Both the position numbers and the translations under genes were made by a program. A stretch of 64,000 nucleotides of DNA from Candidatus Borrarchaeum weybense (GTDB taxonomy: Archaea > Asgardarchaeota > Sifarchaeia > Borrarchaeales > Borrarchaeaceae), in the NCBI GenBank assembly GCA_019057385.1, contig JAHQJS010000007.1, forward strand, positions 747,685-811,684, written 5' to 3'. How positions within the stretch are numbered: position 1 is the first letter of the stretch; the number at the start of each line of letters is the position of its first letter. Shown here one piece after another: positions 1,108 through 12,381 of this stretch. The notes beneath the pieces are model-generated. The model was not told where the DNA came from and did not search any database. It worked only from the letters and a program-made list of their open reading frames with translations.

Positions 1108-1641
1108 CTATTCTTCAAGAAATTCGTCGAGTATACCCGATTTTCTTAGGATTTTTAAAATAATGAAGCCTAAAACTGATCCAGGAATACAACTTGCTGC
1201 AAATGCTATCCAAAAGAACGTAATATTCGGTGTTGCTCCAATTAAAGGAGCAAAGATCAATGCGGAAATGGTCGCACCAATTATAACAGTTCCAAGAGGC
1301 TCTGCTAGTGCAGCATAATCAGTTTTTTTAAGATATTTGTAAATTATCCCTACCACAAAACCTCCTGGAAGGCCACCAGGAAATGCAAATATTGTGCCCC
1401 ATCCTAAAGAATTTCTAATTATTCCGATTACTAACGCAATAAAAACCGCATAAAGGGGTCCAAGAAGTATTCCTGCTATAGCATTAACTATATGTTGTCC
1501 TGGGAAGACCTTGGTTGGTCCAATAGGGAACCAAAGAAAAGATGCTAACAAAACACCTAAGGCGATTAAGACTGCACTTAAGGCTATTTTTTTAGTTTCA
1601 ACGACCTCTGTATATTTATTTTTTTGTAAGCCTCTTTCCAT
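1108..1641 (-). CDS. thiW: ECF transporter S component ThiW (thiazole uptake)
   Basis: Signatures FPGQHIVNAIAGILLGP, GTIFAFPGG, EPLGT. Start moved to ATG 1641, which follows a GAGGAGG SD. Thiamine gene context. Confidence 0.9.
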   Translation of the reverse strand: MERGLQKNKYTEVVETKKIALSAVLIALGVLLASFLWFPIGPTKVFPGQHIVNAIAGILLGPLYAVFIALVIGIIRNSLGWGTIFAFPGGLPGGFVVGIIYKYLKKTDYAALAEPLGTVIIGATISALIFAPLIGATPNITFFWIAFAASCIPGSVLGFIILKILRKSGILDEFLEE

Positions 1642-1745
1642 TCCTTTTCCTCCTCGTTGAATCGTAAACGAAACAACTCTTAGATTGACTTTTATTTTGA
1701 GCAACTTCAATTGAAAGTCTATTATTATCAATCATATATATATAG

Positions 1746-1852
1746 TATAACAAAATTATATCAATTTCTAGACAATAAATGAGCCACGAAGCAAGAAAAA
1801 TAGATTAATCCAATATATTGAGATTTATTGTTTATTATAAATCAGTTATAAT
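1746..1852. promoter_or_regulatory. Two pseudo-palindromic TATAAC-N3-GTTATA boxes (candidate ThiR operators) between divergent thiW and the permease gene
   Basis: TATAACAAAATTATA at 1746-1760 and TATAAATCAGTTATA at 1836-1850, each one mismatch from a perfect palindrome. Confidence 0.55.
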
Positions 1853-1869
1853 TTGGAAGGGGATAATGT

Positions 1870-3201
1870 TTGACAAAAGCACTGTTTAAAAAGTTCAGAA
1901 TAAGCCCTCCTCCAGAATATGGAATAGAGTCCGTTCCTTCTAAATTGAAAAATTTACGTTTCCTTGATTATTTTGTATTATGGAGTTCTCTGGGAGTTGG
2001 ATTATTGGTTTTTTGGGCAGGTCTCCTTCTTGTACCAGGTCTAGGACTTGGCTTGGCGCTTTTAGCAATTCTCGTTGGACATCTTATCGGAAACTTGTTT
2101 CTAGCACTTGTTGGGACCATTGGTGCTGAAAATGGTATTCCCTCTATGGTTGCAGTTCGCCCATCATTTGGTATTCGTAGTTCATACTTGATGTCCATCT
2201 TGAATTTAATTCAATTAATCGGATGGGCATCTTTTGAGATACTCGTGATGGGACAAGCCGTCGATGCAATAATGGTTTCTACTTTTGGTTACTCTAATTA
2301 TGCCATTTGGGTTCTCGTTTTCGGATTCTTCGTTTTTTTATTAGCCTTTGGAGGTCCACTTACAGTAATAAGAGATTGGTTAAGGAAATTTGCGATTTGG
2401 CTCATTTATGGATTAGGTATTTGGATAACCATCATTGTCTTCACACAATACGATTTGGTTGCATTACTTAACGCTCCATCTACAGGCGAGTTAACATTTT
2501 CGGGAGGTATTGACCTAGTTATTGCGATGCCAATATCATGGGTTCCTCTTGTCGCAGATTATAATAGATTTTCTAAAAACTCGAAAGAAGATTTTTCAGG
2601 CACATATTTAGGTTTCCTAATCACTAGTGGCTGGTGTTATGCTCTAGGAGCTATCACGACATTAGCTACAGGTGAGCCAAACCCCGTTCTCCTTATTATG
2701 GTAATTGTAGGTCCAATTGCAGCTATTCCTTCACTATTAATAGTAGTAACTGATGAAACAGACAATGGGTTTGCAGACGTATACTCTGCTGCAATTTCCG
2801 TCCAAAACGTCTTTCCGAAGGTTAAACAGTGGAAATTAATTATTATAATCAGTATAATAAGTACAGCGCTTGCCTTAGTTTTTGGTTTATCCCCACAGTT
2901 TGAGGAGTATTATATTAATTTCTTGCTTTGGATTGGCTCAGTATTTATTCCTCTATTTGGAATTGTGATCATCGATTACTTTGTTGTGAGAAAGAAGAAG
3001 TTTGATATTTCTGCGATATATGAAAGTAAAAAAGGCGCACTATACTGGTATTGGAAGGGGATTAATCCGCGTGCAATTATTGCATGGATCTGTGGTGTAA
3101 TGATATACTGGATACTTATCTTTGCAGTTCCATGGCTTGGAGGATCACTACTTAGTTTGATAAGTGCCGCTGTTCTCTATTGGCTATTTACAAAACTCTA
3201 G
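1870..3201 (+). CDS. cytX: NCS1/cytosine-purine permease family, CytX-like hydroxymethylpyrimidine transporter
   Basis: About 12 TM segments; motifs IAMPISWVPLVADYNRF and DETDNGFADVYSAAIS; directly upstream of thiDN. Confidence 0.8.
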   Translation: MTKALFKKFRISPPPEYGIESVPSKLKNLRFLDYFVLWSSLGVGLLVFWAGLLLVPGLGLGLALLAILVGHLIGNLFLALVGTIGAENGIPSMVAVRPSFGIRSSYLMSILNLIQLIGWASFEILVMGQAVDAIMVSTFGYSNYAIWVLVFGFFVFLLAFGGPLTVIRDWLRKFAIWLIYGLGIWITIIVFTQYDLVALLNAPSTGELTFSGGIDLVIAMPISWVPLVADYNRFSKNSKEDFSGTYLGFLITSGWCYALGAITTLATGEPNPVLLIMVIVGPIAAIPSLLIVVTDETDNGFADVYSAAISVQNVFPKVKQWKLIIIISIISTALALVFGLSPQFEEYYINFLLWIGSVFIPLFGIVIIDYFVVRKKKFDISAIYESKKGALYWYWKGINPRAIIAWICGVMIYWILIFAVPWLGGSLLSLISAAVLYWLFTKL

Positions 3202-3243
3202 AACAAATATTTGGCTTTTTAGATTAGCAAACTCAAGAATAAG

Positions 3244-4608
3244 GTGAAATATATTATGAGAAAGATTCCCTGTGCTTTAACTATAGCTGGTTCCGACAGT
3301 GGGGGCGGGGCGGGTATTCAGGCAGACTTAAAAACATTTGCAGCCCTCGGTGTTCATGGAATGAGCGCAATCACAGCAGTAACAGCACAAAATACGGTTG
3401 ATGTAACCGCGATTCAAGATATATCTCCTGATTTAATAAGCGCTCAAATTAATGCAGTTTGGGACGATATTGGTGTGGATGCTGCTAAAACGGGTATGCT
3501 TCACACTGTTGAAATTATTAAAGTAGTTGCAGAGGAAATCGAAAATAAGGGATTTCCTACTGTTGTTGATCCCGTTATGATATCAAAAAGTGGTGTTCCT
3601 TTACTCAAAGAGGAAGCTGTGAATAGTTTGATCTCCCATATCCTCCCAAAAGCTGATGTTATAACTCCAAATGCTCATGAAGCAGAAAAACTCTCTGGAA
3701 TGCAGATAGAGTCCCTTGAAGACGCCAAGAAAGCGGCGATAAACCTAGCAGAATTAGGTCCAAAGGCAGTCGTGGTAAAAGGAGGACATATTTTTTCTGA
3801 GGATGGTTCAATAGATGTATTATATTATAATGAGGAATTTGTTACAGTGACCTCCGAAAGAATTGATACTAAAACGACGCATGGAACTGGATGTTGTTTT
3901 GCTGCAGCAATTGCTGCTGAAATCGCTAAAGGAAAAGATATAAACGAAGCTTTTATTGTTGCAAAAGACCTTATTACCGAAGGAATACGACATGGACTCC
4001 CACTTGGTAAAGGATATGGCCCCGTTAGTCCTATGGCCCATCTTTACAACGAAGCTGAGAGATATTATGTTCTAAAAGATGTACAAAATGCGCTTGAGAA
4101 ACTTGAGAAAAATCCAAAAATGATTCAACTCATTCCAGAAGTACGATCAAACTTAATTATGGCTACATCTTATGCTATAGACGCTAAAGATGTTGTTGGT
4201 ATTCCAGGGCGAATAACTGCTACAAAGGATGGAATAAAAGCTGTTATGTGTCCAACTTTCGGCGTATCTCAGCATGTAGCGAACACTATATTAACTGCAA
4301 AAAGATATGATCCTTTAATTAAAGCTGGAATGAATTTGCGTTATTCTGAAGAAATTCTTGAGATATGTAAAAAATCGAATTTCTTAATTTCCTGTTATGA
4401 CCGTAAAAAGGAACCTCAGGATATAAAAACGAAAGAGGGCAAAACAACAGCTTGGGGCGCTGAGCAAGCGATTGAAGCTGTTGGAAGAGTGCCAGACGTT
4501 ATCTACCACACCGGTGACTTGGGAAAAGAACCAATGATAACAATATTGGGCAATTCAGCATTAGCTGTTGCCCAAAAGGTCTTAAGAATTTCAAAAAATC
4601 TGCCCTAA
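3244..4608 (+). CDS. thiDN: Bifunctional HMP/HMP-P kinase - thiamine-phosphate synthase ThiDN
   Basis: ALTIAGSDSGGGAGIQAD, DPVM, THGTGC (ThiD); C-terminal LIPEVRSN...PDVIYHTGDLGKEPM (ThiN). Confidence 0.95.
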   Translation: MKYIMRKIPCALTIAGSDSGGGAGIQADLKTFAALGVHGMSAITAVTAQNTVDVTAIQDISPDLISAQINAVWDDIGVDAAKTGMLHTVEIIKVVAEEIENKGFPTVVDPVMISKSGVPLLKEEAVNSLISHILPKADVITPNAHEAEKLSGMQIESLEDAKKAAINLAELGPKAVVVKGGHIFSEDGSIDVLYYNEEFVTVTSERIDTKTTHGTGCCFAAAIAAEIAKGKDINEAFIVAKDLITEGIRHGLPLGKGYGPVSPMAHLYNEAERYYVLKDVQNALEKLEKNPKMIQLIPEVRSNLIMATSYAIDAKDVVGIPGRITATKDGIKAVMCPTFGVSQHVANTILTAKRYDPLIKAGMNLRYSEEILEICKKSNFLISCYDRKKEPQDIKTKEGKTTAWGAEQAIEAVGRVPDVIYHTGDLGKEPMITILGNSALAVAQKVLRISKNLP

Positions 4609-4750: not shown

Positions 4751-4984
4751 TTGCAACCTCCACCACCAGAAATTCTATTCGGTTTTGGTATTTTAGCACT
4801 TATGATAGCCATTGGAGTTATATGGTTTGTAGTTGCTATATTGATTGCAGTCTGGGTGTATAGAGATGCCGAAAAGAGGGGCGAGAGCGGAGCATTGTGG
4901 TTAATTATCGTATTGATTACGGGGATAATCGGTTTGATAATTTGGCTGATTGTCAGGGGAGACAAGCCTGAGATAAAATCATAA
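4751..4984 (+). CDS. Small membrane protein, PLDc_N/cardiolipin synthase N-terminal-like
   Basis: WVYRDAEKRG...LWLIIVLITGIIGLIIWLIVR pattern; AGGTGA SD. Confidence 0.75.
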   Translation: MQPPPPEILFGFGILALMIAIGVIWFVVAILIAVWVYRDAEKRGESGALWLIIVLITGIIGLIIWLIVRGDKPEIKS

Positions 4985-5014: not shown

Positions 5015-5542
5015 CTAAACGAAATCGATGTACACTGTTGCAGTGAAGTCTGGGATTGTCTCAAAGTTAAAAATCACATCAAGTCGAACTGATTGACCTC
5101 TTACTTCTTCTTTATACTCTGCGATTTCTTCAGCAGCTACAGTAAAACTATCAGTTTCGTCCAGTCCAGCAAGGATATCAAACCCTTCTTTTCCATCACC
5201 ATCATCATCAGCATTATCGACATCGATGTTGTGCGTATAGATCTTAACTTCCCAGTCCCAGATTCCTAGAATCCTTTGGACAGAATAAATCTCCATGGAC
5301 ATATCCGTGAGATGGACCGTCTCACCGTTATTTTGAATAGCGAGGTCTACACTGATAGCATTGTCAACGTTTATTGTAAGTGGGTTATCCTTAGTATTGT
5401 ACTGAGATACATCATTGCCGTTTATTAAAACTGTCATCGATAGATCCTGGTGTGTGTATGCTGCATTAGATAGCGGAGCGAACGTACTAAGTGCAAATAG
5501 AGCTACAAGCAATAAACCAATTATTGATGTAGATTTCCTCAA
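5015..5542 (-). CDS. Secreted beta-rich (Ig-like?) protein with an acidic DxDGDG loop; stand-alone copy 1 of the local ectodomain family
   Basis: Signal peptide ending LSNA; aligns with the N-terminal domains of 6590, 7983 and 9648 (YTH[QH]D, GE[TS][VI]HL, GDG[KR]EGFDI, TVY). Confidence 0.85.
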   Translation of the reverse strand: MRKSTSIIGLLLVALFALSTFAPLSNAAYTHQDLSMTVLINGNDVSQYNTKDNPLTINVDNAISVDLAIQNNGETVHLTDMSMEIYSVQRILGIWDWEVKIYTHNIDVDNADDDGDGKEGFDILAGLDETDSFTVAAEEIAEYKEEVRGQSVRLDVIFNFETIPDFTATVYIDFV

Positions 5543-5589
5543 AATAATTCACCTTTCCTAAAGTCTTTTCTCATTATCCAATTATCTGA

Positions 5590-5793
5590 GTGAGCTACCT
5601 CGTGCTTAAGCCTTGAGGCTTCCTGCTTCTACGACAGACTCGATCCCCTTGCGGGTTACGGAGGTCTTATCTCCACAGGCTTAACATCCCTACGCCCCGT
5701 AGGTACTCATAGACGCAAGGAGCACCAGATTATATGAACCCAACGCCATTCATCACCACGCTAAAACATTGGTGCTTTCTTGCTTGGCTTTTT
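5590..5793 (-). mobile_element. Non-autonomous IS200/IS605 mini-element (left end + TnpB omegaRNA-like right-end scaffold), copy 1
   Basis: Minus strand reads TTAC|AAAAAGCCAAGCAAGAAAGCACCAATGTTTTAGCGTGGTGATGAAT ... AAGCCTGTGGAG ... GAAGCAGGAAGCCTCAAGGCTTAAGCACGAGGTAGCTCAC. Homologous to 38042-38247; no target-site duplication. Confidence 0.85.
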
Positions 5794-5817
5794 GTAAGAT
5801 AAATAGATCTCCATCTT

Positions 5818-5836
5818 TAATAATTCTTTTAGTACA
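5818..5836 (-). promoter_or_regulatory. Promoter: TGTACTAAAA motif immediately upstream of the TTATTAAA TATA box
   Basis: Minus strand TGTACTAAAAGAATTATTAAA; same architecture at 6516-6525 and 10227-10236. Confidence 0.65.
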
Positions 5837-6057
5837 ATTTTTTCCCTTACTATAAGGTTTTTTAATTTGAAACAAAGCAAGAATGCTACCCACTTTAGTT
5901 AGAAATGAATTGCTAAAGGCAGATACTTGTGAAAAAGATTGTTTAGACTTAATAAATAAGCCTGGAAAAAGTCTAGTTTGGTAAAATAAATAATAAGATA
6001 AAAAAATGAAAAATCTGGAGTTCTTGATATCGAAATGCTACTCAATCTAAAGAGCCA

Positions 6058-6429
6058 TTATTGAGTCTTCCAGAAATATTTGAGTGCATACAAAAGATAT
6101 ATCGTTAGAACTAGGAATGAACCAAATGTAAGCCACGTAGCAGTCAAGCCTAACGCTGAAATTATTAAACCGATTACTGCGAGTACGGTAGTGGCAAACC
6201 AAGACCATTTTTTCATGTACCATAATCCACTTCCCACAGCCATCACGATAAGCGCTAGGAAAATCCAGCCAATCCCTAAAATCAACTCATTACCTACGCC
6301 CCACAACGGTGTCGTAAGTAGTGTGACTGCTATAACCCCTAGGAAGATCAATCCTCGGACTAATACAATGATACCAACGATATAGACTAGAATTGCTAAA
6401 AGGGTGATACCAATAGGTCGTTTTTCCAT
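6058..6429 (-). CDS. Small 4-TM membrane protein (RPxGxT...LW.MKKW family)
   Basis: Four hydrophobic segments; KRPIGITLLAIL N-terminus; GAGGAG SD. Confidence 0.8.
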   Translation of the reverse strand: MEKRPIGITLLAILVYIVGIIVLVRGLIFLGVIAVTLLTTPLWGVGNELILGIGWIFLALIVMAVGSGLWYMKKWSWFATTVLAVIGLIISALGLTATWLTFGSFLVLTIYLLYALKYFWKTQ

Positions 6430-6504
6430 ATTATTCTCTCCTCATTTTTTTGATTTTCATTATTTAGAATTACTTATCAGTTAAAACTGATATAATAGAG
6501 TTTA

Positions 6505-6525
6505 TTTGATAAGCCTTTTAGTACA
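6505..6525 (-). promoter_or_regulatory. Promoter with the shared TGTACTAAAA motif + TATA-like TTATCAAA
   Basis: Minus strand TGTACTAAAAGGCTTATCAAA. Confidence 0.6.
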
Positions 6526-6589
6526 CCGTTTGCACATGCCAAAAATCGATTGTGGGGCATTTTTTGCATGAAAAAAATCGAGTTCACGC

Positions 6590-7795
6590 CTAAACAAAAC
6601 TTTCAGGTAGAATTTTTCGTAAGACAAGATTCTTTTTGTTAATAAAAAACTTCTTTTGTCCATTTTCCAGTATAACGTTAATTATTTTTGCGTCTACAAG
6701 CTTTTTCATATTATATCTGATGGTTCCCTGAGATTTCCCTAATTGCTTTGCAATAAGATTCTGGTATGCCCCAGGGTTTTTTGAAATGAATTGAACTATC
6801 GCTTTAGCAGTATTGCTTTTTAATATTAATCGGGGATCCTTCGGTGAAATCTTTCTTCCAGTTGGATAATAAACTTTGTACTGCTTATATCTATGAGAGC
6901 CAATAAATCCAAAATCTTCTAGAACCTGTAAATGCCAAACTCCTGCAAAGGGTCCTATATCGATATAATCAATAATCTCACGAAAATGGGCACCCTCATT
7001 ATTGATAATATAGTCGTAAATTTTCTCTCTGGTAACATTCGTTAAAATTTCATCTTTTTTAAGATTTCTAACCGCCGGTGGACGAATTACTGTCCCAATA
7101 GCTACACAAAACGTAGCTAATTTTTTCACAACTTTGAAGGTAAATTCCCTATTTGTAAGGATAACCGCAAAAGAGACGGCTATCGCACTTATTGTAGAGA
7201 ATACAATCAATTCTGACGTTTGAATTCCTTTAAAAAGATCAAATAAGCCATTAGAACCTTCAGATGCTATTTGTCCTTCTCTTAGGTATACGGTAATAAA
7301 ATAATCTGGGATAATTTCAAAGTTAAGGTTGATATCAACACGCACTCGTTGACCTCTAATTTGCTCTTTATACTCTTTAATCTCTTCTGAATATACAACA
7401 AAATTACGGGATTCACTCATTCCCGACTCTATATCAAAACCTTCTTTTCCATCACCGTCTTCATCATTATTGTCGACATCTATGTAATGTGTAAAAACTT
7501 TCGCTTCTTGATCCCATAAGAGAATCTCTTGAACTGTATAGACATCGATTGACGCATCGATTAGGTGAACAGATTCGCCAGCGTTTGATATATCTAAATC
7601 TATTTCTATATCGTTTTCAATATCTATTACAAGCGGAGTTTCCTTAGTATTATGCAGAGATATGTCATTATCATTTACTAAAACTGTAAATGTGAGGTCG
7701 TGGTGTGTATATGAGGCGTTTAGAGACGAAACAAGAGCATTAATGGTGAAAAGCATCATAAAAATGAAAACTAGAACAGACACAGATTTTCTCAA
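6590..7795 (-). CDS. Membrane-anchored transcription regulator: signal peptide + ectodomain + TM + two winged-HTH domains (COG3398-like)
   Basis: Signal ending LNA; ectodomain shared with 5015; TM LIVFSTISAIAVSFAVIL; REKIYDYIINNEGAHFREI...WHLQVLEDFG and NPGAYQNLIAKQLGKSQGTIRYNMKKL. Confidence 0.88.
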   Translation of the reverse strand: MRKSVSVLVFIFMMLFTINALVSSLNASYTHHDLTFTVLVNDNDISLHNTKETPLVIDIENDIEIDLDISNAGESVHLIDASIDVYTVQEILLWDQEAKVFTHYIDVDNNDEDGDGKEGFDIESGMSESRNFVVYSEEIKEYKEQIRGQRVRVDINLNFEIIPDYFITVYLREGQIASEGSNGLFDLFKGIQTSELIVFSTISAIAVSFAVILTNREFTFKVVKKLATFCVAIGTVIRPPAVRNLKKDEILTNVTREKIYDYIINNEGAHFREIIDYIDIGPFAGVWHLQVLEDFGFIGSHRYKQYKVYYPTGRKISPKDPRLILKSNTAKAIVQFISKNPGAYQNLIAKQLGKSQGTIRYNMKKLVDAKIINVILENGQKKFFINKKNLVLRKILPESFV

Positions 7796-7982
7796 AATGC
7801 TTTCATCCCTTGTTTGGAAGCCAATAGACTTTTTATTGATTCTCTATATATACTTAAATTATTAAGTTTTAGAATGCATTAAAATCGATTTAATAAATAA
7901 AAAACATACTATAGAAATTCACAAATAAAAGATCCAGCAATTTGATTTAGGTAAAATGCTTTATCATTAAAAGAATTTGTAT

Positions 7983-9308
7983 TTACACTGAAAACGCATT
8001 TTCAGGGAGAATTCTACGTAAAGCTAGGTTCTTTTCGTTAATATAAAATCTCTTTTGCCCATTTTCCTTCATAATGTTGATTATTTTTGCGTCTACAAGC
8101 TTTTTCATATTATATCTAATCGCCCCTGAAGATTTCCCTAATTGCTTTGCAATAAGATTCTGGTATGCCCCAGGGTTTTTTAAAATAAAGCGAACGATCG
8201 CCTTAGCAGTCTTACTTTTTAATACTAAGCGGGGATCCTTCAGTGGAATTACTTTTCCTGCAATTAATGGATAGAAAATCTTATAGTGCTTATATCTGCG
8301 AGAGACAATGAATCCAAAGTCTTCTAGAACCTGCAAATGCCAGGTGCCCTCAAATGGACCAATATCAATGTGATTGATAATTTCGCGAAAATGAGCGCCT
8401 TCATGAGAACAAATGTAGTTATAAATTCGATCTCGGGTATCATTCGTTAATACCTCATCTTCTTTAAGATTTCTAATTGAAGGTGGACGAACTACAGTAC
8501 CAATAGCTACAATAAATGCTTCAGCACTTATAATAACAAAAAACATTTCACCAATCTTGAAAATTAGAGCTGCAAACTTGAGTGCAATTTTTTTATTCGT
8601 TTGCATTACAACAAATGAGACTAAAAGAGCGCTTGCTGTTGTATATAAAATCAATTGTGACGTTTCAACCCCTCTAAACGGGTCAAATAAGTCTATCGTA
8701 TATTCTGTATCTTGTGTAACTCCATTATCACTAATACCTTCCGTATTTCCGTCTGTTTCCGTTTTATTGGAGGCTTCTGGTGAAACTACACCTTCTTCTA
8801 TATAAACAGTAATAGTATAGTCAGATATAGTTTCAAAATTGAAAGTTAAATCAACCCGAGCTCTTTGATCTCTCATTAGTTCCTTGTATTCTTCAATATC
8901 TTTTGACCTTAATCTAAGACTTTTTGATTCTGCCAATCCAGCAACAATATCGAAACCTTCTCTTCCATCGCCATCTTCGTCACCATTATCAACATCGATG
9001 TTGTATTTAAAGATCTTTGTTTCATAATCCCAAAAAAGTGCTTTCTGGATTGTATAGACCTCAATTGATGTGTCTATTAAATGAATTGTCTCGCCTGTGT
9101 TCGAGATATCAAAATCTATCTCGATATCGTTATCTACATCCAATAAAAGTGGGTTATTTTTAGTGTGACTTGATACTTCACTACCGTTTATCAAGACAGT
9201 TATAGTAAGGTCTTGATGTGTATAAGCAGCATTTCCAGGGGAGATAAAAGCTGATAATGTGACTAGTGTTACAAATACCAGGATAAAGATGGGCAGATTT
9301 TTTTTCAA
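7983..9308 (-). CDS. Membrane-anchored transcription regulator, paralog of 6590..7795
   Basis: Same architecture with a longer acidic S/T-rich linker; near-identical wHTH domains. Confidence 0.88.
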   Translation of the reverse strand: MKKNLPIFILVFVTLVTLSAFISPGNAAYTHQDLTITVLINGSEVSSHTKNNPLLLDVDNDIEIDFDISNTGETIHLIDTSIEVYTIQKALFWDYETKIFKYNIDVDNGDEDGDGREGFDIVAGLAESKSLRLRSKDIEEYKELMRDQRARVDLTFNFETISDYTITVYIEEGVVSPEASNKTETDGNTEGISDNGVTQDTEYTIDLFDPFRGVETSQLILYTTASALLVSFVVMQTNKKIALKFAALIFKIGEMFFVIISAEAFIVAIGTVVRPPSIRNLKEDEVLTNDTRDRIYNYICSHEGAHFREIINHIDIGPFEGTWHLQVLEDFGFIVSRRYKHYKIFYPLIAGKVIPLKDPRLVLKSKTAKAIVRFILKNPGAYQNLIAKQLGKSSGAIRYNMKKLVDAKIINIMKENGQKRFYINEKNLALRRILPENAFSV

Positions 9309-9465
9309 AATATATTCACCATTTTAATGAGGTATTATAACTTTAGTGACAAATAACTTTATTATTACCTCACAAAATACCTCACTACGCAATTGTTTTG
9401 TTTTCTAATCTATTCCTATGTATATTTTTGGACTTAATATTTGAAATTCTTTGCTCCATTCACAA

Positions 9466-9527
9466 CTTGGTACACTGGGTTTTCCATTTTAATTGATTTT
9501 ATTTTGCTAAAAATCACTTTTGGTACA
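9466..9527 (-). promoter_or_regulatory. Two variant copies of the TGTACYAA motif upstream of the 441-aa regulator
   Basis: Minus strand TGTACCAAAAG at 9517-9527 and TGTACCAAG at 9466-9474. Confidence 0.45.
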
Positions 9528-9647
9528 AATTTTGTTACTTTCCAGTTTAATCTAGAACCGCATATTATACAAGAGGGTATTGAAAAATAGTATTACATTA
9601 GAAGCACATTGAAAAATCAAATCAAAAATAAAAAGAAAAGATTAGGA

Positions 9648-10139
9648 TTAAACAAACTCCACATAAACTGTTATGACAAAGTATGGAATGCTTTCAAAAC
9701 TAAGGGTCACATCAATGCGATTGGTTTGTCCTCTAAGTGCTTCTTTATTCTCTCCGACATTGTTTAGGAACAAAGTAAAACTGGCTTTCGTTCCAAATCC
9801 TGCAGGGATGTCTTTGTCGACTTCGAATTGATTTTCGTAGAATTTTGTGTCCCAGTGCCAGAAAAGAACAGGCTGAACATTATAAAGTTCAACAGTAATG
9901 TCGTTTAGGTGGACAGTTTCCCCATTATTTGCAAATGAGAAATCTCCTTTAACATCTTCGTCTAGGTTTATTACTAGTGGATTATTAAAAGTATCATGTG
10001 TTGATACATCTGAACCGTTAAGAAATAGTGTCATTGTTATATCATGATGAGTATAGTCAGCGCTTGAAAGAGGGGCAAAGGTAGTCATTGCAAATAATGT
10101 CACAAATAGTATCGCTATGACGCTGGTATATTTTCTCAA
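9648..10139 (-). CDS. Secreted stand-alone ectodomain paralog, copy 2, lacking the acidic DxDGDG loop
   Basis: Start reassigned to TTG 10139 (AGGTGA SD; MRKYTSVIAILF...LSSA signal peptide, parallel to the paralogs); 163 aa ending VYVEFV. Confidence 0.85.
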   Translation of the reverse strand: MRKYTSVIAILFVTLFAMTTFAPLSSADYTHHDITMTLFLNGSDVSTHDTFNNPLVINLDEDVKGDFSFANNGETVHLNDITVELYNVQPVLFWHWDTKFYENQFEVDKDIPAGFGTKASFTLFLNNVGENKEALRGQTNRIDVTLSFESIPYFVITVYVEFV

Positions 10140-10215
10140 ACGTTGTTCACCTTTCTTAAGTGCTCTAAGATTTATATTTACGATTAAACTAGAGTAAGAT
10201 ACATATGCACTCATA

Positions 10216-10236
10216 TTTAATAACTTTTTTAGTACA
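10216..10236 (-). promoter_or_regulatory. Promoter with TGTACTAAAA motif + TTATTAAA TATA box
   Basis: Minus strand TGTACTAAAAAAGTTATTAAA. Confidence 0.65.
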
Positions 10237-10414
10237 GTTTTTACCATAATTAAAAACTTTGACTTAGAGGCAATTTCTTCCCTTAAAGAGGCATACTAAT
10301 CTCATAATGTACAATTAAAAACGAATTGAATTACGTGAAAGGTGCATTTAACGTAATAAAATCTGATAAGAACAAAACATGATCAAAATTAATAAAAACA
10401 GGGATTCTCTTTTC

Positions 10415-11700: not shown

Positions 11701-12381
11701 ATGAGGAAAATTTGTTGTTGGATCATACTCGCACTTTTCGTAGGCAGTGTATTCTTTGTAAGTGTAACTACTGCTCAGGAAGACATTGAACTAGAACCAA
11801 TCGCAGACACTTATATTAGAGCTACAGATCCTGATGAAAACTATGGTGACGAAACATATCTTCGTGTGGGAGACGCACGTCTAAGCAATGATTATATACG
11901 TATTACCTATCTGCTGTTTGATTTATCAGCGATTGACGGATCGATTCAAGAGGCAACGTTGAAACTTTATCTGAAATGGTCATGGGAGGCGCGATATATT
12001 GGGATTCACGAATGTGATGACACCAATTGGAATGAAGACACACTTACCTGGAACAATGCACCTTCTTATAACTCAGAGGCTGTAGACAGTTTCAATGTTA
12101 GTCGTACACTTCAATGGAATGAATGGGATGCTACAGACATTGCTAAAGGAAAGCAAGGTCAACTGGTAACAATTGTGGTAAAAGCAAGAGATCCAGTGAA
12201 TAAAATTGGTGATTGGACCGACTTCGCTTCAAAAGAAAATGATCGCAATCATCCCGTGCTAGTCATTAATCAAGGCAGTGGCGGTTTTTCGGTGTGTCTT
12301 GGCACCATTCTGCTATGCTGTACTATTCCAGTGCTTGGATTAGGTGTCCTTTCTAAACGAATTCGTACTAAAGTTCGCTAA
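11701..12381 (+). CDS. Cell-surface DNRLRE/CBM96-like domain protein with C-terminal membrane anchor
   Basis: Signal peptide; ADTYI...PDENYG, YLLFDLS, ATLKLY, WNEDTLTWNNAP, FASKE...PVL; C-terminal CLGT-TM-basic tail. Confidence 0.85.
   Translation: MRKICCWIILALFVGSVFFVSVTTAQEDIELEPIADTYIRATDPDENYGDETYLRVGDARLSNDYIRITYLLFDLSAIDGSIQEATLKLYLKWSWEARYIGIHECDDTNWNEDTLTWNNAPSYNSEAVDSFNVSRTLQWNEWDATDIAKGKQGQLVTIVVKARDPVNKIGDWTDFASKENDRNHPVLVINQGSGGFSVCLGTILLCCTIPVLGLGVLSKRIRTKVR

Follow-up and report, generated by a model that had tools for sequence, protein, structure and literature searches.

A cluster of five genes lies on the minus strand between positions 5015 and 10250 of a 64-kb stretch of DNA from contig JAHQJS010000007.1 of the Asgard archaeon Candidatus Borrarchaeum weybense. 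The whole stretch of 64,000 nucleotides is called the window here. In order of position, the genes are A, a gene for a small membrane protein with about four transmembrane (TM) segments (the 4-TM gene), B, C, and D. A and D encode free secreted proteins made of a single domain of about 150 amino acids (aa). B and C encode a related domain, the ectodomain, joined through a TM helix to a tail of two winged helix-turn-helix (wHTH) domains. The arrangement suggests that sensors and secreted proteins of this cell surface may share one binding module. A fifth free copy, gene E, is found on a separate contig of the same genome (G000:C5:190468-190905), where it adjoins an aminopeptidase-like gene and has no regulator nearby. 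The host genome comprises 4.18 Mb in 8 contigs, and close homologs carry the names Candidatus Borrarchaeum sp. or Promethearchaeota archaeon. Among public sequencing runs, the stretch is present only in sediment or soil metagenome DNA runs; no RNA run is listed.

Gene A (5015-5542) encodes 175 aa, with a signal peptide at 5462-5542, a DxDxDG loop at 5192-5209, and the C-terminus VYIDFV. Gene D (9648-10139) encodes 163 aa counted from its TTG start, with a signal peptide at 10059-10139; it has no DxDxDG loop and ends in VYVEFV. The transmembrane regulator B (6590-7795, 401 aa) consists of a signal peptide (7715-7795), the ectodomain (7268-7714, with its DxDxDG loop at 7448-7465), a TM helix (7151-7219), a PF24266 wHTH domain (6860-7033), and an HTH_24 wHTH domain (6680-6811). 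The regulator C (7983-9308, 441 aa) has a signal peptide (9228-9308), the ectodomain (8781-9227, loop at 8964-8981), an acidic linker, a TM helix (8598-8660), an amphipathic or hydrophobic juxtamembrane segment (8484-8588), a PF24266 domain (8268-8444), and an HTH_24 domain (8079-8213). The 4-TM gene (6058-6429, 123 aa) accompanies gene B. A preliminary description of this DNA had proposed four paralogous ectodomains, each with a signal peptide and a TTG start, two of them free with a common C-terminal motif and two fused to tandem wHTH domains, with a 4-TM gene embedded among them. Open reading frames (ORFs), alignment, Shine-Dalgarno spacing, domain matches, and the roughly four hydrophobic segments of the small membrane protein all bear this out.

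Each of the four paralogs starts with TTG, preceded 7 nt upstream by GGTGA (GGGATGA for B). The signal peptides begin with a K/R-containing N-terminus, continue with a hydrophobic core of some 18 aa, and close with a small-x-small cleavage site, after which comes a conserved x-Y-T-H. The start of D is likely the TTG at 10139 rather than the ATG of a longer form (9648-10247, 199 aa), because the ATG version would take in the gene's own promoter box (10227-10236) and TATA element. Several database entries give C a length of 471 aa, probably because the gene was extended too far in the same way.

At the mature N-termini (5462-5470, 7715-7723, 9228-9236, and 10059-10067) the pattern x-Y-T-H-x-D-L is near-invariant in free and fused copies, and these residues are disordered in the ectodomain model. 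An ATCUN-type metal site, with His at mature position 3, was considered for this N-terminus and dropped, since the likely cleavage puts the His at position 4 in most copies.

The ectodomains of A, B, C, and D are paralogous and 51-60% identical. In a four-way alignment, identity to A is 51-57% over the common stretch of about 150 aa, and 46 columns are invariant. A and D end two or three residues past the last strand; B and C run on into a linker, a hydrophobic helix, and the two wHTH domains. The DxDxDG motif reads DDDGDG in A and DEDGDG in B and C. It is also found in E, and D lacks it through an 11-residue gap. By its sequence this stretch, which is an unstructured loop in the ectodomain model, matches a calcium-type binding motif. 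The ectodomains are acidic, with isoelectric points (pI) of 4.05-4.35, and the tails are basic (9.9-10.0).

Scans of Pfam and NCBIfam assigned no family to the ectodomain, the free proteins, or the 4-TM protein. A profile search with the ectodomain gave 12 matches among 1.84 billion representative proteins, of which 2 resemble low-complexity noise. The giant repeat proteins P0051 and P0054 were rejected as members; only a short N-terminal stretch is matched, many times over, and they look like noise of this type. Among 400 genomes of the phylum, the family is present in 6: four belong to one genus, one belongs to a sister family, and one has a marginal match.

The structure of the mature ectodomain was predicted with AlphaFold2 (AF2) from an alignment of 29 sequences. 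The resulting model has about nine strands and one helix, arranged as a closed beta-sandwich, and a modest mean predicted local distance difference test score (pLDDT) of 67. Fold searches gave weak matches, namely arrestin/Spo0M-like sandwiches (TM-score 0.54-0.60) and birnavirus VP2 (Z 6.8). In VIA-align, the carbohydrate-binding modules (CBMs) CBM15 and CBM27 and the protein SGBP-B appear at Z 5.5-5.9, amid many unrelated sandwiches and with no Pfam match. Foldseek returned nothing at E <= 0.001 against the PDB, and a protein-language-model atlas gave sub-threshold leads to CARDB, DUF11, and NPCBM-type Ig-like domains, with scores of 0.80-0.84. As far as the model goes, these matches point to a generic sandwich and not to membership in a family.

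One idea in the preliminary description, that the receptors monitor a pilin-like fibre by strand exchange, finds no footing here. The signal peptides are of the Sec/SPase-I type, not class III, and the modelled sandwich is closed.

The tails of B and C match families of transcription regulators. PF24266 scores 50.2 bits in B and 58.1 bits in C (cut-off 31), and HTH_24 scores 35.4 bits in both (cut-off 21.9); ArsR-type HTH_20/HTH_5 and MarR_2 are matched as well. Both proteins carry PF24266 (HTH_HVO_0163_N) followed by a second wHTH domain, the arrangement that marks COG3398-like double-wHTH regulators. The PF24266 model also matches the Methanocaldococcus, Haloferax, and Methanosarcina controls. 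Other PF24266 matches in this genome were considered as further receptors and rejected; they are soluble regulators. In a full-length AF2 model of C, the wHTH domains reach pLDDT 80-87, and the membrane region is unresolved (pLDDT <50 at mature residues 149-254).

TM segments were called by Kyte-Doolittle hydropathy in a window of 19 residues. B has one peak (2.39, aa 193-215), followed by the K/R-rich sequence NREFTFKVVKK and about 12 hydrophobic residues. C has a peak of 1.69 (aa 217-237), in a helix homologous to that of B, and another of 2.37 (aa 241-275). The latter region contains an amphipathic part (aa 240-257, hydrophobic moment 0.48) and a TM-like stretch (aa 252-272, mean hydrophobicity 0.80). 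Thus, the second hydrophobic segment that the preliminary description had placed before the wHTH domains is long and TM-like in C, and amounts to only about 12 residues in B.

Because a single TM helix follows a cleaved signal peptide in B, its flank is K/R-rich as the positive-inside rule expects, and its tail has a pI of 10, the tail of B is predicted to lie on the cytoplasmic side. B and C share the conserved junction AIGTV-RPP-x-[IV]RNLK as well as conserved tails. For this reason the tail of C is inferred, by parity with B, to lie inside as well, with its extra segment peripheral or re-entrant. The topology that the preliminary description wanted checked is thus clearer for B than for C. 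Transmembrane transcription regulators (TTRs) are defined by a predicted DNA-binding domain together with at least one predicted TM region (PMC10269533), and as judged from their sequences B and C have both.

The tail may be something other than a DNA-binding device. In that case B and C would not be transcription factors at all, and the tail would either serve as a scaffold that binds proteins, as in ScpB or ESCRT-II, or be located on the outer side of the membrane. The fold of the tail resembles ArsR-type single wHTHs and generic tandem winged-helix (WH) proteins, and ESCRT-II, ScpB, and SelB are among its top fold matches; the second TM-like stretch of C would suit an outside location. This explanation is quite improbable, given that the families matched by sequence are those of transcription regulators, that the tail has a pI near 10, and that the single predicted TM helix of B would not put its tail outside. 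It would also require another reader for the promoter box described next, such as a general factor (for instance, an alternative TFB) for which the box would be a promoter variant.

The box has the sequence TGTACYAAAA. All four of its matches in the window fall within the cluster, on the coding strand. Upstream of A it reads TGTACTAAAA (5827-5836) and is followed by the TATA-like ATTATTAAAG; upstream of the 4-TM gene it is again TGTACTAAAA (6516-6525); about 210 nt upstream of C it is TGTACCAAAA (9518-9527), followed by GTGATTTTTAG; and upstream of D it is TGTACTAAAA (10227-10236), followed by the TATA-like GTTATTAAATA. The expected count in the window is 0.42, and 0 of 100 shuffles reached 4. 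The box is located 5-6 nt upstream of the TATA-like element, at or just upstream of the position of the TFIIB recognition element (BRE), which is where a promoter variant read by a general factor would be expected. Genome-wide there are 31 matches, and hardly any of those beyond the cluster has a TATA-like element after it. The clearest exception, with TGTACCAAAA, is at G000:C4:423907, and a weaker one is at G000:C8:13236. The genes downstream of the former encode a 95-aa Cys-rich protein and a 247-aa membrane protein and have no evident link to the cluster.

Related DNA can be used to judge the box further. In the congeneric genome G004 and the related contig L006, it is kept upstream of D, C, and A, and the flanks of the A promoter have diverged. 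In another related contig, L030, the 9-mer TGTACYAAA occurs 9 times, always on the coding strand, against 0.26 expected. These sites precede genes for a secreted protein (P0067), a coiled-coil receptor, D, and C, and two small ORFs that are not paralogous to any of them. Each of these two ORFs (864-1049 and 1322-1477) lies behind tandem TGTACCAAA boxes 39 nt apart. These tandem boxes have no TATA of their own and resemble operators more than a BRE, which argues against a general factor as the reader. A 22-nt module made of the box of C and GTGATTTTTAG also precedes non-paralogous genes in L030.

Taken together, these patterns suggest that the box is the operator of B- and C-type regulators. 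We infer that they bind it, as well as the sign of the regulation, and C would then be autoregulated and co-expressed with the free paralogs.

Another way to account for the cluster is that its paralogs are merely co-located, with no coupling through signals. The ectodomain of B and C would then have only a surface or structural task, such as positioning the regulator or gathering it in clusters. The actual input would arise in the membrane or the cytoplasm and could come through the 4-TM protein, and the free copies, duplicated nearby by chance, would be common surface or matrix proteins. Tandem duplication does leave paralogs adjacent, and the promoters of the cluster are themselves partly paralogous: those of A and D are homologous to each other, and that of the 4-TM gene is homologous to the A promoter of L006. 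It also fits this explanation that B has no box, and that the archaeal regulators ArnR and ArnR1 are thought to sense a membrane-associated stimulus (PMC6396743). On balance this course of events is unlikely. The non-paralogous genes of L030 also lie behind the box, and two further observations, set out below, tell against it: purifying selection acts on the fused genes, ectodomain included, and adjacency is kept in all related contigs and for two types of ectodomain.

The origin of the fused proteins can be traced in a maximum-likelihood tree of 35 ectodomains. All 9 fused ectodomains form one clade (support 100/99) nested among the free proteins, and the most distant members of the tree, P0048 and P0052, are free. 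A single fusion event, followed by the duplication that gave B and C, explains this tree as reconstructed. Remote free members are found in unrelated contexts, one beside a TFIIB gene and one between GAPDH-like and hydrolase genes.

Selection was estimated from the ratio of nonsynonymous to synonymous substitution rates (dN/dS) against L006. The values are 0.13 for A and 0.15 for the whole gene C; that for D, 0.53, is based on very few changes (dS 0.06). Orthologs of A are 83-93% identical and occur in many metagenome contigs, and orthologs of C are 80-98% identical. Many metagenome contigs contain intact free orthologs of types A, D, and E, whose C-termini are unchanged, and D has orthologs in L006, G004, and L030. 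By these comparisons the free copies are ancestral and intact proteins under purifying selection; they are not decayed truncations, an origin that the preliminary description had called unlikely.

Free copies also exist where there is no receptor. Gene E in this genome and the remote relatives are examples, and one genome of the sister family has free copies only. Because of this, the free proteins would have a function that is independent of any receptor.

The co-occurrence of free and fused forms, which the preliminary description had left to be looked for elsewhere, is general among close relatives. A free copy lies beside a fused gene in G004, in the related contigs L006-L008, L032, L033, and L030/L031, and in the P0014 contig; wherever the contig around a fused gene is long enough to tell, a free copy is adjacent. 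No contig was found for the protein P0013. The core order D-C-A is conserved. B and the 4-TM gene come together: both are present in this window, L032, L033, and the P0014 contig, and both are missing from G004 and L006. The 4-TM protein, for which 12 homologs were found, all of them close, may be a co-sensor.

A second pairing of this kind is found in L030. The third receptor of that contig, P0021, has the same TM-wHTH cassette with an acidic helical repeat in place of the beta-sandwich, and the cassette occurs with another ectodomain in P0017-P0021. P0067, a secreted protein encoded just upstream of P0021, shares its acidic helical repeat (BLASTP E 2e-12, 41% identity in 124 columns); the repeat is followed by a domain that belongs, as a divergent member, to the beta-sandwich family (hhalign probability 95%). 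Judged by sequence, the pairing of free and fused forms thus occurs twice, with two unrelated modules, and P0067 links both. With P0067 as the query, no similar protein was found in five genomes of the genus.

Some differences among the relatives stand apart from this pattern. In L030 (6010-10755, minus strand) and the P0014 contig, a protein of 1581-1585 aa with faint Big_3/Big_7/Big_13 matches is encoded between the D-type gene and the C-type receptor; it is absent from the cluster of this window. L030 also has small non-secreted ORFs of 61, 51, and 52 aa (600-2140 and 3292-3450), of which no counterparts were seen in the window.

In the window, a repeated mini-element of 204 bp (5590-5793) is inserted between the box and TATA of A and the Shine-Dalgarno sequence of A, and is probably transcribed as part of the leader of that gene. 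Gene A is intact despite the insertion. L032 and L033 carry the same insertion, and L006 and G004 have the empty site. The genome holds about 18 full-length copies of the element and many partial ones, mostly of the first 118 nt or so.

The reading preferred here is that the cluster forms a self-contained, lineage-specific regulon for sensing at the cell surface, in which the sensor reports on the very target outside the cell to which the free proteins bind. It is given a probability of roughly 40%. Under this reading, B and C would be single-chain transmembrane transcription regulators whose Sec signal peptide is cleaved. An acidic beta-sandwich ectodomain (pI about 4.1) with its DxDxDG loop would be turned outward; one membrane helix and a hydrophobic juxtamembrane segment would lead to a basic tandem winged-helix tail (pI about 10) in the cytoplasm. 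The ectodomain would have been captured once from small secreted proteins, an older family to which A, D, and E belong, and grafted on a pre-existing TM-wHTH module. The TGTACYAAAA box, adjacent to the BRE/TATA in the promoters of C, D, A, and the 4-TM gene, would be where the regulators bind, so that the receptor gene and the free paralogs are switched together. The sensor would report the target of the free proteins because both share one binding module, and the input would most likely be a divalent cation, a mineral, or a glycan surface.

The preliminary description had instead taken the secreted paralogs as ligands, decoys, or polymer partners of the receptor. As the signal, they would bind its ectodomain, perhaps via Ca2+ at the DxDxDG loop, and the cell would gauge either its own secreted pool or surface assembly, as an inventory feedback, or that of its neighbours, as a quorum-like protein autoinducer. 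Several features suit such homotypic binding. The regulon is self-contained, consisting of receptors, free single-domain paralogs, and small membrane or small proteins, and the box is common to receptor and free genes. The second, unrelated ectodomain also occurs in L030 as an adjacent free and fused pair, its acidic helical repeat is a module type that often oligomerises, and the free protein P0067 holds both module types in one chain. Free and fused ectodomains are 57-60% identical and keep the invariant residues of the family. A precedent for the sensing of a product is the work of Kilmury and Burrows (2016), as cited in PMC6058289.

Against binding between paralogs stand the free copies that have no receptor, including the unlinked and box-less E, and the absence of the DxDxDG loop from D, the conserved neighbour of C. 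Moreover, known sensors that are paralogous to secreted proteins share a ligand with them instead of binding them. A predicted complex of the C ectodomain with free A, both with alignments, scored 0.27 against a mark of 0.32, in a run without controls, and speaks neither for nor against binding. Homotypic recognition is therefore a possible but doubtful account. The shared external target is ranked slightly above it because free copies predate the receptors and exist without them; because known sensors that share a module, such as RsgI (PMC6852018), sense an outside ligand and not secreted proteins; and because both module types are extremely acidic, one with a calcium-type loop, which points to cations or to mineral or glycan surfaces.

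A number of observations weigh against the shared external target too. The regulon holds no enzyme or transporter that acts on an outside substrate, unlike the regulons of RsgI; apart from receptors and free secreted proteins of the same modules, the cluster contains nothing of obvious function. The fold matches are weak and come from a model of pLDDT 67, so the likeness to CBMs is only a lead. B and E lack the box, and the promoters of A, D, and the 4-TM gene are partly paralogous, so the sharing of the box within the window is not fully independent evidence. Tandem winged helices can bind protein, as ScpB and ESCRT-II among the fold matches of the tail illustrate. Finally, the second hydrophobic stretch of C is TM-like, and a single crossing of the membrane by it would put the tail outside. 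Of the preliminary description, the layout holds up, and B and C have the TTR features; the common promoter box and the second free and fused pair strengthen the idea of one functional module. The part that involved pilins and strand exchange is not supported.

The class to which B and C belong, transmembrane one-component regulators, is already known. TTRs are widespread in archaea, and single-pass forms are the commonest kind (PMC10269533). As is predicted for B and C, the TTRs ToxR, TcpP, and CadC combine in one chain an outside sensor, a membrane helix, and a cytoplasmic DNA-binding domain, and are presumed to act from the membrane (PMC10269533). In contrast to ToxR and CadC, the order in B and C is reversed, with a signal peptide and an N-terminal ectodomain before a C-terminal tail, and the DNA-binding part is a tandem archaeal wHTH (PF24266 and HTH_24), not of the OmpR type. 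No Trans_reg_C (OmpR-type) domain was detected in B or C at E <= 1, and their HTHs are C-terminal, unlike those of ToxR/CadC-type proteins. The ectodomain also sets B and C apart from the known TTRs: its family is new, and secreted paralogs that stand free belong to the same putative regulon.

ArnR and ArnR1 of Sulfolobus acidocaldarius are, like B and C, archaeal membrane-bound one-component regulators that form a pair of paralogs, and they control genes for surface structures via promoter boxes (PMC6396743). ArnR has an N-terminal HTH, a cytoplasmic HAMP-like or sensor region, and two C-terminal TM helices (PMC6396743), and unlike B and C it has no signal peptide, large ectodomain, or secreted paralogs. 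B and C have no HAMP match, and their domain order is the reverse of that of ArnR, which sets them apart from the ArnR type.

A likeness in logic can be found in the RsgI anti-sigma-I sensors of Clostridium thermocellum, which display at the surface a binding module of a kind known from secreted proteins, as here (PMC6852018, PMC10328401). Their sensory elements are CBM, PA14, or glycoside-hydrolase modules, and they regulate genes for secreted (cellulosomal) proteins (PMC6852018, PMC10328401). As a bacterial anti-sigma factor, RsgI acts in concert with a separate sigma factor and with proteolysis, and it regulates multi-domain enzymes, whereas B and C are one-chain regulators of an archaeal host and their free relatives are the bare module. 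Pfam and NCBIfam scans found no anti-sigma-I domain in B or C, and the likeness to RsgI is one of logic only. PilS of Pseudomonas aeruginosa is a membrane sensor that gauges the pool of the exported protein it controls, PilA, much as homotypic sensing would have it. PilS differs from B and C in being a histidine kinase that touches the pilin inside the membrane, and sensor and pilin are not paralogs (Kilmury and Burrows 2016, cited in PMC6058289). Within a limited search of the literature, no description was found of an archaeal receptor ectodomain with free secreted paralogs in the same box-marked set of genes.

Other genes surround the cluster in the window. A thiamine salvage block at 1108-4608 encodes a ThiW-type transporter, a permease of the cytosine/purine family, and a ThiD-ThiN fusion protein. 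A 77-aa protein with two TM segments and a weak PLDc_N match (4751-4984) is convergent with gene A and found in the same place in L006. On the other side, a secreted CBM96-domain protein (11701-12381, E 1e-34) has a C-terminal hydrophobic anchor; this neighbour is conserved in L006 and has no TGTAC box.

Asgard archaea are the closest known relatives of eukaryotes. To our knowledge, almost nothing has been described of how they perceive their environment or one another. The locus provides a small circuit within reach of experiment, made of a secreted protein of 150 aa, a one-chain receptor-regulator that is built on this module, and a promoter box of defined sequence. It also shows how a receptor can originate, with an ectodomain that appears to have been captured once from a secreted family and placed on a TM-wHTH cassette that can be reused. 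Should the free proteins turn out to be ligands, the locus would amount to self-sensing by means of proteins, for which no prokaryotic counterpart has been described, and to an Asgard circuit for self-recognition or quorum-like sensing whose principle would be used twice, with beta-sandwich and with acidic helical modules. If receptors and free proteins instead share an outside ligand, the RsgI-type principle, in which a sensor shares the binding module of its regulon, would extend to the one-component regulators of archaea.

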